This document shows, piece after piece, positions 24,001 to 45,000 of a stretch of 64,000 nucleotides of DNA. The first letter of the stretch is position 1. The number at the start of each line of letters is the position of its first letter. The position numbers are program-made. The stretch spans positions 32,001 to 96,000 of the forward strand of contig OZ244065.1 in NCBI GenBank assembly GCA_965215505.1. The letters run 5' to 3'. This DNA is from Capsulimonadaceae bacterium (lineage in GTDB: Bacteria > Armatimonadota > Armatimonadia > Armatimonadales > Capsulimonadaceae).

Positions 24001-27000
24001 AAGCCCTTCGCCGAGCCGGAGGACGACGACGCGGGCATTTGACCGCCTCCGTCCGCTTCTCCGGGAGCATTCACCGAGTCGGGAATAAGTAGATGCGCGG
24101 GAGGGTGACCCGCATCGTCTCTTCCACGAAGCCGACCCAGAGGAAGAACAGGGGCACGAACAGGGCGATCGCCAGGCGTATTGCCAGGGGCAGCACCGAG
24201 GGGGCGTGGGGACCCGCCCCGCGCCGGGCGACTCGGTCCAGGGCGAGCGGCACCGCAGAGAGGGCGGCGGCGGCGGCGAGGCTCCAGGCAAGTGCGGCCA
24301 GGGATTGTCTGAGGGCGAGCAGGACCAGCAGGCAGAGGGTCAGGCCCGCCGCGAGGGCGCTCACGAGTGGGGCGTGGCGCGCGCCGGACGCGGCCTGCCT
24401 CACGGCCAGCGCACACACGCCGAGGAATCCCGCCGGCAGCAGGAGGATCAGCAGGAAGGCGGCCACGAGGCGCACCGGCCCCGGCAGTGTGATGACCCAA
24501 GCCGTCATGTTCGTCCCCTCGATTTCGCAGAACGGCCCGTTCAGTCGGGCCGTGGGGCGCGGCCATAAACCGCGCGGATCTTTTGGACCGCCTCGTAGTG
24601 CCGGTCGCCCGGCGCGATCTGGAAGTCCATCGTCAGCCGCCCCTGGGCATCCCACTGCTGCTCGGCCACCCGGAAGCCGTACTCGGCCAGCACCTCGGAC
24701 CGCAGCCGGCCGGCCTCGTCCCACTCGCGCTCAGTCCGGTAGGGTTTAGTGTCGTCGAAGACCCACTCGGACTTGAGCTGTCTCGAGGGGTGCCAGGTAC
24801 GGTAGCGCCCGTGCATCTGGCCGTCCACGAACTCGGTTTCGTCCTGGAGGGTGCCGTCGGGCCAGAGGCGGTAGGCGACGCCGGTAAAAGGCTGCTTACG
24901 CCAGGTGTAAGTGACGCCGTCTTGTGTGTCGAGGTCCTCGTGTTCGATACGCCGCGTGTGTGCCCCCCCGCCGCTTTTATGGCTCTGTGCCCCTTCCCTC
25001 TGACCCATCCCCGCGTGGGTCAGCCCCATAGGCGGCCCGAAAGTTCTGGAGAAGATCATAATGGGGATGGCCCGGCTTCAACTCGAAGTCGAGGATGAGC
25101 CGGCCCGCCTCGTCCCACTGCTTCTCGGCCACCCGGAAGCCGTACTCGGCGTGAGACTCGCGCCGCAGCCGGCCTGCCTCATCCCACTTGCGGTCCGTCC
25201 CATAGGCCACCCCGTTATAGTATTCCGTCTCGGACTGACGTTGCCCCGAGGGATACCAATCCCGCGACACGCCCTGCTGCTTGCCACCGACAAACTCGAT
25301 CTCGCTCCAGAGTGTTCCGTCAGGCCGCAGTTCGTAGCCGGTCCCGGTGAAGGGTGCCTCGCGCCAGTAATAGGTCACGCCTTCCTGCGTGTCGAGTTCG
25401 TCAAGGCCCACGCGCTGCATCTGTCGCCCCTCTGCGCTTGCCGGTCCTGGCTTTAAGTCGAGCCGGAAACATGTCCGTATGACCTCCGCATGACCTCCGC
25501 ATCTTCTGAAGCAGAGTGAAGTCGGGATGATTCAGTGCCGGGCAGGGCCGTCCCGTGTCCCCTGTTCGGGCTTCGGCTAAGGCGCTGGGCCGCTCCTCAT
25601 CCGCCCAGCAACCGCCTGTCCTTGGATGCGAAGTGCGGCGAGGCAATGACGCGCCTCAGCAGGAACTCCATCAGGCAAGTGCCCGCCAACTCGGAGGAAG
25701 AAGCGCCCCGGCTGAAGTTGGACGCGCGATTGGCGAGCAGCAGGACTTCATCCGAAAGGCCCTCATACTCCTGCGGCGTCGTATAGAAGATCGCTCCCTG
25801 CGAGGGCGGGATGTGAAGTCCTTCTTCGGGGCGGTCCCAGCCGGGATCGGGCAGGAGTTCTTCCCGGCCAGCCTGGGCTGCATCCGGCGTGACCGCGTAG
25901 CGCGCCAGGGCCAGCGATACCAGCCGCGCCTCCTCCGGCGTGTGGATGGCGTTTGTATTGTCAGGCAAGACCGGTGGCCATATGCGCTCCGTCTTCCGGG
26001 TGTTCGGCACGAACAGGACTTCGATGGTCCTGTTCAGGGTCACGGCCAGAACGCCCGTGTAGAGCAGAGCGACTTCGTCAGGCTTCTCCCAACTTTGCAG
26101 TTGAGCGCAGAGAAAAGAGCCGTGTTGCGGTGAAGAATTTACTGCGTCATTCTTCGTCAGGCCGAAGGTGACTCCCGGCACCCCGTATCACAACGATGGC
26201 TCCCCCTTAAAGCGTTTTTAGGCGTTTCTTGTTAAAGCCAGCCTGTCGCTGGCCGGCAAGAACCGTCTGGCTTTTCCTCCCTGCCCGAGACACTGACTGT
26301 GATGGCCCGACTGTAAGCGTGTTGCTATCAGTCACGTCTCGGTGCGAAGGTTCTAAAGTCAGTCTTGTGTAAACTCGCGCCTTTAAAGATCGCCCCTGCC
26401 ATTTCTCCACCTAAAAAGATCGCGTGGTCCAGCTTGGAACCTGAAAAATCTGCCCCAGTTAGATCTGCTCGTGCGATTGTCGAGTACGCCAACTCAGCCC
26501 CAGTCAAATCCGCCCCAGCGAGGTTGACTCCATCCATGACGAAGTTACCAGTCAGATCGGCACCGCGCAGGTTTGCGTGGGAGAGATCAGCACTGTCAAG
26601 CTCCGCACCACTGAGATTGGCCCCAGCCAGGTTCGCGCCCGAGAGGTCCGCGAACGAGAGCTTCGTTGCCTGAAGGTCGGCTCCGGCGAGAGCGGCCCCA
26701 GCTAGCGGTGCGCCACGCAGGTCATGGAGGTCGTAGACGTCATCCACTTCCGCAAATCCCTCGATCAGGGGCGTCCACGGCTGCCGCGTCTGCAAGGCTG
26801 TGACTATTTTTTTGAGGAGGGCCTGACCATGGGCTGTCTGCCATCGCCCTTGGAGCCTCTGTCGCTGCTGGTAGTGCCAGTCTTCATCTTCCATTTCCGT
26901 TACTCCTTACGATCCTGGCGGCCAAACGTGGAAAGGTGGGAAGCTTCCATGGCCAATCTTGCTTAGGAAGCCCTTGAGACGGCTCTGTATGGCTTGGACC

Positions 27001-42000: not shown

Positions 42001-45000
42001 TCCATCAGCGGCAGCATCTCGTCTACATAGGTCGTCTTGCCGTAAGTGTCGGCGTCCGGCATGACCGCGTCCTGGGCGGCACGGATCGACTCCAGGAGGG
42101 GGTCATCCAGCATGATCGAGTTCTGCTTGCGCTTCGCGGGCCGCTTTTTCTTGAACTCGGCGACGTTCGGCACGATCACGAACGAGATGGCGTCGCGGAA
42201 CTGGTTGTTGGCCTGGGCGTTGGCCCCTTCGAAGAACCGCTTCAGCTCGTCGGGCCGCGACAGGAAGAGGTGGGGCAGGTCTTCGTTCGCGACGATCAGC
42301 TCCGGCTTCATGCTGTCCGGCAGGCGCACGTCGGAGGGGAATTCGTTGAACAGCAGATAGACGCCCATGATCGTCTCGAACAGCGGCGTGACCGTCTGGA
42401 GGAACGACTCGACGGCATTGCTGTAGACCCCGAGGAACATGTCGTGGTAGTGTTCCACGTCCCGGATGTCCGGGTTCAGCAGGGCCAGCTCTTTGGGGTT
42501 CTGCAAGACGGTCGCGACGAGGTTGCCCATGAGCGGGGCGATCATGCCCCGGTCAATCATCTTGTCCATGAATTTGCCGACCGCGATGGGGAACCGCTTC
42601 TCGTGGGGGACCAGGGCGATGTCCTGGCCGGCGACCAGCTTGCCCTGCTCGCGGATCTTGTCCAGCGCGGTGTCCAGGGTCCGCACCGTGATGGCCGTGC
42701 CCGTGGAGCCGCCCTCGGACTTGACCAGTTCGCCGCCCTCCTCGCCCTTGCCTTCCAGCAGCTTCTTTTCGCCCTCCAAGAGCTTCTTGCCCTTCTTGCC
42801 GTCTGCGGCGGGGGCTTCCAGCGCGGGCAGGGTGGGCATGGAGCGCGGCGAGGCGATCAGCGACCGGTCCTTGCCGAACTCGATCTGGTACACGTTGGGG
42901 TCGATCGGGCCGCCGCCGGGCGACTGGCGTTTCAGCTCGTTTGCGGTCTGTTCCAGCCCGTAGACGACGGTGGGCAGGACGCGGACGGTGTCTTCCAAGG
43001 CACCCTGGAAGTCGTCGGCGGCCACCTGATAGGCTTCGAGGGCACGGGCGGTGTCCTTGGAGGCGGGGTTGCGCTTGACTTCCAGCATCAGGCGGTCGTT
43101 CTTGACCTGGACGTCCTCGGCGATCTTCCGCATCAAGGTCCGCTGGTTTTTTGGCTTGAAGGCGAACAGGGAGGCGTCCACGTCCACGCGGAAGGTGGAG
43201 ACGTCCTGCCGGACCCGCTTCTTGATCAGGTCGCGCAGGCAGCGGATGTACGGGTGGTCGGCGCTGACGCGGATCTTCTTCCAGCCCGGCCCACCTTCCA
43301 GCGAGAACTCGATCTGCGGCGGGCCGGGCGCTTCCTCAACGGGGGACGCTTCTTCTCCTTCCGCGGCACCCGCCTGGGTCATCTGCGGGCCGCGGACGCG
43401 GTAGTAGAAGCCGGGCTGGAACTTGTCGAGGAACTCGGTGAAGGAGGTGACCGTCAGGTTCTCGCGCACCAGCGACAGGAACTGCTCCTCCGACATCTCC
43501 TCGACGCGGGAGAGCAGGCTGCCCAGCGAGGGGGTGTACTCCCGGTCGCGCTCCAGGGCCTCGGGGTCGAGGTACTCGTCGAGGTTGACCTTGGCGAAAA
43601 GGATCGCGCGGTTGGTCTTCCCCAACATGCTGCGGTTCGCTTCCATGATCGTCTCATTGGTGATTGGCACGGTCTCGTCTCCTTTGAGTTATCGCGGCGG
43701 GGCAAAAGCGGAATGGAAAGGCTGAATTGAAAGGCTAAACAGAAGTGCGCGAACAAAAAGAGTGTCGGGCCACCCTCACGACAATCATTCCCGTTTCCGG
43801 GCCGCCTGACACCTAACGAACGGGCGGATTTCGCGGCTGGTTTGAGTCACGCGGCGGAGCGGGCCACGAGCAGAAGCCACAGCCAGTAGCCAAGGCCCAG
43901 GCCGCCCCCCAGCGCGACCGCCAGCAGGACATAAGCCGGCCAGCCGGTGCGCGGGCGCAGGCGCAGAGTCGCCCGGTCCGGGAACGCTTTCTCCTCCTCC
44001 CAGGCCGGCCAGAGGGAGTGGGAGGCCAGCGACTTGTCGGGCGTCAGCCGGTGCCCGCGCCAGTCGCACAGGTCGAAGCAGCAGGGCCGCTCGGCCTTGT
44101 CAAGGATGAGCGCGACCACCCGGTCAATGCGGTCCTCGGCGTCCGCGTAGGTGTACTCAATGTTCCCGGCGACAAGCGTCGGCGGCCCGACTCGGTACAG
44201 GTCGCGCCGCAGCACCAAGGACAGCTCCGCGTAGGCCTGCCCCTCGCTCGTGAGCTGGGAGGCGAGGGAGGCGCTGCGCGGCAGGAACCTTTCGCCGAAC
44301 CAGAAGTGCCGCGAGATCCGCTCCAGGGCCTGCCGGGACCGGCGGACATCTTCATGGTTGATGCAGTCCTGGTATAGCTCCGCGAAGGTCGCGTGGAGCG
44401 GGTAGTCGCGCAGCCAGAACGGGCGGATGTCTGAAAGTTCCGGGATCGCGACCTTCACATCCACCGTACCCGTCCTGCCCGATTGTCCTGTCGAAATGCT
44501 CATAACGGTTACCGGACACCCATTCGCCACCCGCCGACGGGATTCCTGCCCTCACTTTTTTCGGCCCGCCTGTAGGACATTCGGGCATCGGCGTTGAATA
44601 GGACGGGCAGCGACCGCGAGAGGATCAACATGACACGGAAAAAGATGCAAGGCGGAAGAGCCTGCCGGGCACGTCGAGGGTGGATGAGTCGGGGGGCTGC
44701 GCTGCTGGCGGCCATGCTGGGGGCTACGGGCGGCGCGCAGGCGCAGCAGGCGGCGAAGACCGTGCCGCACCCGACGGATCTGTCCCAGGGGAACACGCTC
44801 TACCTCGTCGGCTACGCCCACCTGGACACGCAGTGGCGCTGGTCGTACCCGCAGGTGATCCGGGAGTTCATCCCCAACACCATGCACAACAACTTCCGGC
44901 TGTTCGACCAGTACCCCGACTACGTCTTCAACTTCAGCGGGTCGCGCCGCTATGAGATGATGAAGGAGTACTATCCGGACGACTATCTGAAAGTGAAGCA

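Follow-up and report, generated by a model that had tools for sequence, protein, structure and literature searches.

An operon on the minus strand of the window (the whole stretch of 64,000 nucleotides analysed here, from a Capsulimonadaceae bacterium) probably encodes a toxin injector resembling a type VI secretion system (T6SS), attached to the cell, dependent on contact and belonging to a subtype of its own. The parts recognised from sequence or from models are a sheath, a tube, TssF, a trimeric TssK, VgrG, a DcrB chaperone and a PAAR effector (Table 1). On the whole they make up an unrecognised T6SS-type machine distinct from eCIS, and the core reading of the genome-wide survey's note stands with better support. 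The machine would be attached to the membrane and would fire on contact.

The operon and its conservation

All genes of the operon are intact reading frames with coding-type GC3, and no lysis genes were seen among them. Eleven loci of the same genus were looked at, one of which was dropped from the count of gene order because its contig ends early. In all ten sufficiently long loci the order runs constantly from g73 through sheath, tube, TssF, the TssG-position gene and TssK to the 154-aa and 894-aa genes, followed by VgrG and DcrB in eight of the ten, which confirms the conserved order claimed earlier. The sheath gene is carried by 13 of the 23 genomes of the genus. Near-identical operon DNA is present in four of four public runs (one of which may itself be the source), one run spanning 23968-42499 in four contigs, and the operon is therefore no assembly artefact.

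The system had been described as invisible to Pfam and NCBIfam. This holds for g73, the sheath, the tube, TssF, the gene at the TssG position and both membrane proteins of the window, but not for VgrG, DcrB and the effector, which are detectable, nor for some TssK orthologues, which exceed the Pfam cut-off. The family matches quoted in the note were reproduced, VgrG with TIGR03361 at E 1.1e-11, TssK with TIGR03353 at E 0.018, and DcrB and Ntox28 at the values listed in Table 1.

Table 1. Features of the operon, in window positions
Feature	Position	Strand	Remarks
g73	43847..44530	-	either 44530 or 44464 may be the start; conserved accessory
Contractile sheath, single chain, 849 aa	41121..43670	-	model and structure searches
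Tail tube, Hcp/TssD/gp19-like, 147 aa	40574..41017	-	orthologue and profile matches
TssF baseplate wedge, 548 aa	38824..40470	-	model and Foldseek/VIA
TssG-position baseplate protein, 537 aa	37214..38827	-	start overlaps TssF stop; putative identity
TssK	36055..37167	-	361 aa from the likely start, ATG 37140; has shoulder and neck, with a tail that is short and variable
154-aa protein, N-terminal membrane helix	35515..35979	-	candidate membrane-complex subunit
894-aa single-pass membrane protein	32776..35460	-	candidate envelope anchor
VgrG spike, 647 aa	30802..32745	-	Phage_base_V, Phage_GPD, TIGR03361
DcrB/EagT6-type effector chaperone	30337..30786	-	PF08786 E 3.9e-23
HEAT-repeat protein	29576..30340	-	HEAT_2 E 2.8e-5; possible orphan immunity gene
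Membrane-helix/PAAR effector, C-terminal Ntox28, 882 aa	26907..29555	-	Ntox28 E 1.1e-34
Pentapeptide-repeat protein	26328..26894	-	PF00805 E 2.9e-30; candidate immunity by position only
194-aa protein without known family	25597..26181	-	candidate immunity by position only
MORN-repeat protein 1	24977..25420	-	MORN_2 E 2.8e-4; candidate immunity
MORN-repeat protein 2	24541..25059	-	shares 55% identity with copy 1; start not certain
Small four-helix membrane protein, cassette end	24071..24508	-	four hydrophobic segments

Sheath, tube and baseplate

The AF2 model of the sheath, built on 129 sequences, reaches pLDDT 88.1 and pTM 0.87. T6SS sheaths account for seven of its eight Foldseek matches at E<=0.001, and the top 27 rows of a VIA search are all contractile sheaths with Z 11.1-19.8, the next row being at 8.8. 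Structural comparison by itself does not separate the sheaths of T6SS, eCIS and phages, which score equally (Z 19.0-19.8); the one-chain sheath of the Streptomyces CIS is among them (Z 19.0). As modelled, the protein is a contractile sheath such as a T6SS possesses. TssC chains cover model residues of about 397-840, with 310-356 residues aligned and no need of the N-terminus. For the N-terminus itself, hhalign ranks TssB as the best of six families at a probability of 3.4% and E 0.013, against 0.044 for a reversed control. Of the earlier claim that the sheath covers TssB and TssC, the TssC part agrees with these alignments, while homology to TssB is unproven. The TssB/TssC split is absent, since one ORF yields a model spanning the whole sheath fold; a sheath of one chain is the normal state in phages. 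Searches by sequence in PDB, Pfam, NCBIfam and PHROG were all blank for the window protein, the profiles A1 and A2 and 47 Bacillota-type members, and in the ESM Atlas the whole sheath gave only leads below 0.9 and residues 1-170 no match. Canonical VipB was found in none of 401 genomes of the phylum; the viral contigs and plasmids searched held no sheath relative, and the plasmids no match to VgrG or TssK queries.

The tube orthologues match T4 gp19 in 13 of 21 cases at E<=1 (best E 1.2e-4) and TssD in 3 of 21 (best 7.8e-5), and the top PDB match of their joint profile is Hcp1 6bdc (E 0.0017). By these sequence matches the tube is Hcp-like, as in T6SS.

For the wedge protein, the AF2 model (pLDDT 73.3) finds 6n38_H first in Foldseek (E 2.6e-13) and the Streptomyces CIS baseplate second (E 6.1e-9), and VIA gives Z 14.1 to T6SS TssF (395 aligned) against 11.2 to eCIS; a wide VIA search with 6giy as the TssF representative places eCIS baseplates first, at Z 10.9 against 6.4. 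Judged by its model, the protein is TssF, since both Foldseek and VIA place it closest to the TssF of T6SS. The next gene directly follows TssF in all loci compared; canonical TssG is the best of four for its profile at E 0.088, which is not significant, and it matches the Bacillota gene at the same position (E 4.3e-4). TssK is established through its orthologues by three methods. Among them, profile-profile comparison by hhalign with seven canonical TssK sequences gives 94.9% (E 4.7e-8, 183 columns), and four of four distant orthologues match TIGR03353 (E 4.6e-14 to 3.3e-6). The protein is also modelled as a trimer scoring 0.93 against 0.00 for the best control (pLDDT 91); of the solved pairs 20 of 30 attain the mark for such scores, of the single chains 1 of 23. 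TssF and TssK, the weak points of the earlier note, are in this way both settled in its favour. TssK was found in five of five distant sheath-positive genomes. The trimer score may reflect resemblance to solved TssK. The window TssK is, we take it, about 80 aa shorter than the canonical protein and apparently lacks the head domain. When profiles of the operon were compared with individual T6SS proteins of E. coli W, only a faint TssK emerged. Against 7-12 canonical sequences hhalign missed the pairs sheath-TssC, TssF-TssF and tube-Hcp, so that its blanks are weak.

The g73 profile (17 homologues) matches only engineered di-ubiquitin Affilins (E 0.076 and 0.29), the stretch 201-219 is hydrophobic and forms a C-terminal membrane helix, and in two distant loci the gene sits between DnaK and DnaJ. 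It looks like a conserved accessory with two ubiquitin-like domains and a membrane anchor. A TssE role had been given by position within the operon; g73 was rejected for it on account of these di-ubiquitin matches and the terminal helix. The sole gp25 (TssE) match of the genome lies at the separate eCIS locus, though the gp25 model might miss a copy that has diverged; TssA had no match among the operon profiles tried.

Membrane proteins, effector cassette and proposed mechanism

The 154-aa protein, with a hydrophobic segment at 18-36 and no family match, comes after TssK throughout the genus, and a gene of similar size stands there in three distant loci. The 894-aa protein consists of 300 N-terminal residues, a helix at 308-326, a Pro-rich linker and an Fn3 domain, the last also present in two of two scanned orthologues; a distant homologue follows TssK in G295 (E 1e-6). 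Beside TssK in G301 and G319 neither gene was found. Both proteins are candidate membrane anchors. For TssL and TssM, no DotU or IcmF-N match at E<=0.1 exists in the 96% complete genome (an E. coli control was positive); none of nine ClpV/TssH matches lies above the cut-off, the best being two unlinked Clp ATPases; TssJ has no homologue among the operon proteins compared. The reported lack of ClpV and TssJLM is accordingly confirmed genome-wide for DotU, IcmF-N and ClpV, and for TssJ within some operon proteins only. Most other branches encode an Hsp70/J-domain pair in the cluster. Such genes are absent from the operon of the window, and counts of Hsp70 matches do not separate carriers from non-carriers within the genus.

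Besides TIGR03361, VgrG matches Phage_base_V (E 2.5e-10) and Phage_GPD (E 3.6e-9). PAAR is matched at E 0.0011 in the window effector and at E 5.8e-7 to 7.2e-12 in five of five orthologues, which bear other toxin tips (a deaminase in two); the middle domain has no family match. By its sequence the effector is a PAAR protein with a swappable C-terminal toxin tip, in agreement with the TM-PAAR-like-Ntox28 architecture first proposed, and the spike is a VgrG with a PAAR tip, as in T6SS. We regard the effector logic as T6SS-type because DcrB is followed by a PAAR effector with an exchangeable tip and because kinase, FHA and PP2C accessories occur in relatives. One distant locus adds PAAR, DUF4123 and a kinase with an FGE-sulfatase domain. 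In the cassette, the HEAT-repeat protein has no relative in the 11 genus loci and is possibly an orphan immunity gene. The pentapeptide-repeat gene is the first after the effector, and the 194-aa protein has no family match. In G020 an orthologue of MORN-repeat protein 1 follows an effector, and one of the four-helix membrane protein lies within the effector cassette.

In the mechanism that we propose, TssF, the TssG-position protein and TssK would form a baseplate around VgrG, which would bear the chaperone-loaded PAAR effector. TssK would attach this baseplate to the inner membrane via the 154-aa and 894-aa proteins, which may stand in for TssJLM. Tube and one-chain sheath would grow by polymerisation in the cytoplasm, with no tape measure to set their length; contraction would push the spike into a neighbouring bacterium, and the downstream genes would shield kin. 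Without ClpV, recycling of the spent sheath may fall to a general Clp ATPase or to an Hsp70/J-domain pair, or may not take place at all.

Relatives, alternative readings and significance

The T6SS counts as a weapon of Gram-negative bacteria. The recurrence across Armatimonadota stated earlier proves patchy, the sheath system being present in 18 of 401 genomes and 5 of 207 genera of the phylum, while the range is far wider, with 394 GTDB matches in Bacillota, annotated as 'transcriptional regulator'. Most members of the sheath family belong to monoderm Bacillota, among them Lachnospiraceae, Roseburia and Paenibacillus; Negativicutes also have members. Gram-positive bacteria of gut and soil thus harbour close counterparts that had gone unrecognised. 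The Bacillota loci repeat the same minimal gene set and contain tube, VgrG, DUF4280, Rhs toxins, a J-domain and an Hsp70-like protein, two FHA genes, PP2C and Imm11; their TssK candidate (14-sequence profile) matches neither canonical nor window TssK. Papers of 2016 and 2021 proposed that Gram-positives have a 'phage-like translocation system' of unknown nature next to genes for DUF4280 and Phage_GPD, but found no sheath, tube or baseplate (PMC8651086, PMC5349215). The Bacillota branch has exactly these neighbours, and its gene content fits that system.

Among the alternatives, it is unlikely that the operon encodes an intracellular membrane-associated system like the Streptomyces CIS, aimed at the producer's own membrane or developmental: the tied one-chain sheath, the second Foldseek match of TssF, the mostly monoderm family and the lack of any trans-envelope homologue found would agree with it, whereas TssK and TssF are of T6SS type, and conflict between cells is indicated by toxin tips that vary, by the equally variable small genes behind them, and by Rhs and Imm11. 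Rather improbable is an incomplete machine that has stopped firing or that borrows missing parts such as gp25/TssE and a cap from eCIS or from genes elsewhere in the genome. Neither TssE nor TssA is recognised among the operon genes, an eCIS-like cluster adjoins the system in G400 (judged by eye), and G003 and G400 have a sheath gene broken into two parts; however, the core genes are intact, the sheath is 81-91% identical across the 11 genus loci with gene order fixed, and Bacillota carry the same minimal set. A released, eCIS- or tailocin-like particle, built in the cytoplasm and set free when the cell lyses, would explain the one-chain sheath, the gp19-like tube and the missing ClpV, TssL and TssM, but is very improbable given two conserved membrane proteins after TssK, no lysis genes, and a full account of the operon genes without the gp25, baseplate J or Tail_P2_I of eCIS. 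The eCIS of this genome is a complete, distinct locus 1 Mb away, as the note had held, with the only gp25 and also baseplate-J/Afp11, Tail_P2_I and the LysM tube initiator.

The T6SS-like injector shares with T6SS i TssF, TssK, VgrG, the PAAR effector with DcrB/EagT6 chaperone and the TssC-like fold, and in relatives DUF4123 and kinase/FHA/PP2C accessories; it differs by its one-chain sheath, by the lack of any TssL, TssM, ClpV or TssE found, and by sequences below Pfam detection. To subtype iii it is linked by a putative non-canonical membrane complex and by a tube matching TssD PF17642 and nearest in PDB to 6bdc, presumably a subtype iii protein. In subtype iii (Bacteroidota) TssB and TssC are separate chains, and the membrane genes are specific to it (TssN, O, P and R). 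Like T6SS ii, it has no ClpV, and the Bacillota branch shares the DUF4280 PAAR-like tip (PMC5349215), but the IglA/IglB sheath of T6SS ii is split. According to PMC7182274, Francisella disassembles its sheath by ClpB. Secretion there does not require contact between ClpB and DnaK, so this system does not speak for a role of Hsp70 in the present one. One-chain sheaths with minimal or novel anchors are described for T6SS iv (Amoebophilus/Aureispira), haloarchaeal T6SS and the Streptomyces CIS in PMC11566945; the eCIS-derived membrane-bound systems have eCIS baseplates (Cis11-13), in contrast to the TssF- and TssK-type parts here. With eCIS (Afp/PVC) the operon shares one-chain sheath and gp19-like tube, but not the four eCIS components named above, and its wedge is closer to TssF. 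Sheath and tube are identified here, unlike in the papers on the Gram-positive system (PMC8651086, PMC5349215). In the literature searched (largely outside subscription journals; the supplement of PMC8651086 may list loci) no description of this system was found.

Tentatively, and at somewhat under even chances, diderm Armatimonadota and monoderm Bacillota may share an undescribed subtype, intermediate between phage/eCIS and T6SS i-iii, with an unsplit, phage-style sheath on a TssF/G/K baseplate, new membrane proteins as anchors, and a dedicated Hsp70/J-domain pair instead of ClpV. It would then be, with similar reserve, the proposed Gram-positive translocation system, and widespread Clostridia of the gut would use it as a weapon on contact. 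How Firmicutes DUF4280/VgrG/Rhs toxins are delivered was left open by two papers (PMC8651086, PMC5349215), and the family offers candidates for the missing sheath, tube and baseplate. Because harmless carriers are in culture (Paenibacillus ginsengihumi DSM 21568, Roseburia inulinivorans DSM 16841 and Pelosinus baikalensis), the question is directly testable. A T6SS-like weapon in Gram-positives had previously only been suspected, and this operon is too divergent for standard annotation. If the reading is true, models of competition in gut communities would change, a natural unsplit T6SS-type sheath would become available to studies of how TssB/TssC arose, and new ways to anchor and recycle contractile machines would come into view.

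Operon, neighbours and occurrence

The operon comprises 17 genes in one orientation, and the weak family matches that the genome-wide survey's note had claimed for them were obtained again on repeat. Features are listed in the table. The order from g73 to the 894-aa gene is kept in all ten same-genus loci of sufficient length, with VgrG and DcrB following in 8 of 10, and near-identical DNA to the region occurs in 4 of the 4 public runs compared. The effector has a constant N-terminus in same-genus loci, with varying tip and downstream genes. It may carry two toxin domains: its middle domain has no Pfam or NCBIfam match and shows by eye an Arg...Ser-x-Ser...Glu pattern reminiscent of ADP-ribosyltransferases. 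As for g73, it weakly resembles a tail-anchored protein made of ubiquitin folds in tandem.

The sheath gene is present in 13 of 23 same-genus genomes, in none of 13 others in the family, in one of 24 in the order and in 18 of 401 in the phylum. The earlier claim of recurrence across Armatimonadota needs narrowing: the distribution is patchy rather than general. In two genomes (G003:C76 and G400:C44) the sheath gene is split in two pieces, by frameshift or assembly error.

Features of the operon, its surroundings and related loci (window coordinates unless a locus or genome is named)
Feature	Location	Strand	Remark
Operon	24071-44530	-	17 genes
g73	43847-44530	-
Sheath	41121-43670	-
Tube	40574-41017	-
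TssF (F)	38824-40470	-
TssG-position gene (G)	37214-38827	-
G, N-terminal ~80 aa	38500-38827	-	PASTA-like by eye; no Pfam match
TssK (K)	36055-37167	-
154-aa gene	35515-35979	-
894-aa gene	32776-35460	-
VgrG	30802-32745	-
DcrB	30337-30786	-
Effector	26907-29555	-
Effector residues ~440-610	27726-28238	-	folded-looking middle domain
Flank	44594-53544		GH38 alpha-mannosidase, HupE/UreJ, kdp genes (ordinary)
Flank	20804-24042		lipid kinase, cobS, aldehyde dehydrogenase (ordinary)
eCIS locus	G000:C1 ~1,032,600-1,056,000 (L019, L020)		complete, separate
Genome G400	L168:94-17440		eCIS-like cluster (by eye) converging directly on this system's cluster
Pelosinus baikalensis	L176:3581-10960		VgrG-like-Rhs-AHH nuclease fusion of 2459 aa; before it lies a tube paralogue extended at its C-terminus
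Distant loci	L150:15697-22595; L160:3225-10563; L165:13712-16150		LysM, peptidoglycan-binding, OmpA-like, phospholipase D genes downstream of VgrG

Sheath, baseplate and membrane genes

The AlphaFold model of the sheath (129 sequences; pLDDT 88.1, pTM 0.87) matches T6SS sheaths in seven of eight Foldseek matches at E<=0.001, the eighth being a Streptomyces CIS, and all of the best 27 rows of a wide VIA search are contractile sheaths. On these grounds the contractile-sheath fold is certain. Its lineage is not, because Z-scores of 19.0-19.8 fail to separate the sheaths of cyanophage A-1(L), Azotobacter T6SS, AFP, Streptomyces and PVC. TssC chains align with the model over 310-356 residues beginning at ~400, and one-chain sheaths over ~280-350 residues beginning at ~16. 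In T6SS the N-terminal sheath strand comes from TssB. From the two alignment ranges, the modelled chain holds this strand plus a TssC-like body. Homology of residues 25-170 to TssB, as implied by the note's view that the sheath covers TssB and TssC, is suggested by one aligned motif at 71-94, in a match that falls short of significance. As one chain is the norm in phage and eCIS, an unsplit sheath is as likely as a fused one.

The baseplate type is the deciding point between T6SS and eCIS. For the 548-aa F protein (model pLDDT 73), the first Foldseek match is TssF of 6n38 (E 2.6e-13), with VIA Z 14.1 over 395 aligned residues (rmsd 6.4) against Z 11.2 for PVC, which bears out the TssF assignment; a wide VIA search in a set without 6n38 ranked eCIS first, with TssF 6giy at Z 6.4. 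The 361-370-aa K protein is TssK, as had been read: PF05936 matches 3 of 16 aligned orthologues (best E 3.9e-9), TIGR03353 matches 4 of 4 distant ones, and the K profile reaches 94.9% over 183 columns against seven canonical TssK (reversed control 0.5%). Modelled in three copies, it gives a trimer scoring 0.93 against 0.00 for the best control; among solved pairs 20 of 30 attain this mark, and among single chains 1 of 23. At least 97% of contacts are shared between runs, pLDDT is at least 90, and the score may reflect memory of solved TssK. K is found in all five distant sheath-positive genomes. Past ~residue 320 nothing but a variable tail remains; the canonical head, which binds TssL/TssM, seems absent, in keeping with the genome's lack of TssL/TssM genes. 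The G assignment to TssG rests on operon position, and the tube identity is supported by gp19, TssD and Hcp1 matches.

The reported lack of recognisable ClpV, TssL and TssM was confirmed, with ClpV, DotU and IcmF-N all below cut-off genome-wide; VipB is missing from 401 phylum genomes. Likewise, the system is indeed separate from the eCIS, whose complete locus (sheath, two gp19 tubes, CIS_tube-LysM, VgrG, DUF4280, gp25, baseplate J, Tail_P2_I) lies 1 Mb away and holds the genome's only gp25 and only Pfam-type sheath. Directly after K, the usual place of tssL and tssM, are two single-pass membrane proteins (154 and 894 aa), candidates for anchors; none were seen beside K in genomes G301 and G319.

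A wider family in Bacillota

Judged by sequence comparison, the sheath family is far larger than the phylum set, with Bacillota its biggest reservoir. With a profile of 33 close sheaths, a search of 1.84 billion representatives yields 228 clusters at E<=0.001, those listed being mostly of 650-900 aa and 15-21% identity. Of 7995 candidates, 2563 proteins were retrieved with one of these clusters (P0091, E 2.6e-22) as query; they bear the name 'transcriptional regulator' in Lachnospiraceae, Dendrosporobacter and [Clostridium] colinum. Seeding a GTDB scan on its branch gave 394 confirmed matches, and the titles of the 80 retained name Lachnospiraceae, Selenomonadaceae, Pelosinus, Anaerotruncus, Roseburia, Paenibacillus and the like, apart from two unclassified; an even draw of 401 Bacillota genomes gave nine strong sheath matches and one marginal. 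In a midpoint-rooted tree of 77 of the family's sequences, a minority with known taxonomy, a 22-member clade with the window is separated from a 55-member clade with all named Bacillota (support 1.0). There are also long-branch clades (P0090, P0096, P0116, P0124, P0132, P0178, P0204; P0066, P0069), and those included cluster with the window's clade. Two diverged sheath paralogues are present per contig in L152, L153 and L154 (tandem in the latter two), two tubes in L152 and L154, and three tube genes in G301 and G319.

Of 62 Bacillota loci, 49 have a VWA membrane gene upstream of the sheath. A tube lies downstream in 50 of 52, duplicated in 48, together with a J protein (41/52), FHA genes (43/52 and 42/52) and a PP2C-like gene (41/52). 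Seven of eight further loci have F-like, G-like, Hsp70-like and 258-aa genes in one block; VgrG, DUF4280, Imm11 and a VgrG-Rhs-AHH toxin occur downstream. When window and Bacillota profiles are compared, the right partner ranks best of 12 for VgrG as well as for tube (E 5e-5), G (E 4e-4) and F (E 0.005), but not for K.

Mode of action and classification

In the Bacillota loci, the two phosphate motifs of the Hsp70-like protein are conserved in 26 and 25 of 27, and HPD in 63 of the 64 short J proteins. DnaK and DnaJ are within or near the cluster at five distant loci (G295, L148, L154, G301, G319), most remaining ones being too short to show them; none were seen in 11 genus loci. The G295 locus additionally has PAAR, DUF4123, an Ntox46 effector and a kinase with FGE-sulfatase domain. 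For the family as a whole, an Hsp70/J pair may be the sheath recycler. In Francisella, according to PMC7182274, ClpB recycles the sheath and its DnaK contact is dispensable. The genes downstream of VgrG at L150, L160 and L165 are possible wall anchors or effectors.

PMC11566945 lists T6SS subtypes i-iv plus an archaeal eCIS-derived T6SS. The system falls outside T6SS i, differing in split sheath, TssJLM and ClpV; its baseplate type sets it outside eCIS. We found no literature description, which may exist elsewhere. The NCBIfam release of June 2026 lacks models for the sheath, the tube, F, G and the Bacillota K candidate. The parts are assigned by homology or model, and we infer docking, firing, target and recycling. 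The operon probably encodes an injector of T6SS-like kind that docks on the membrane and serves bacteria in competing with one another, and the system most probably works like T6SS, as a new variant of it.
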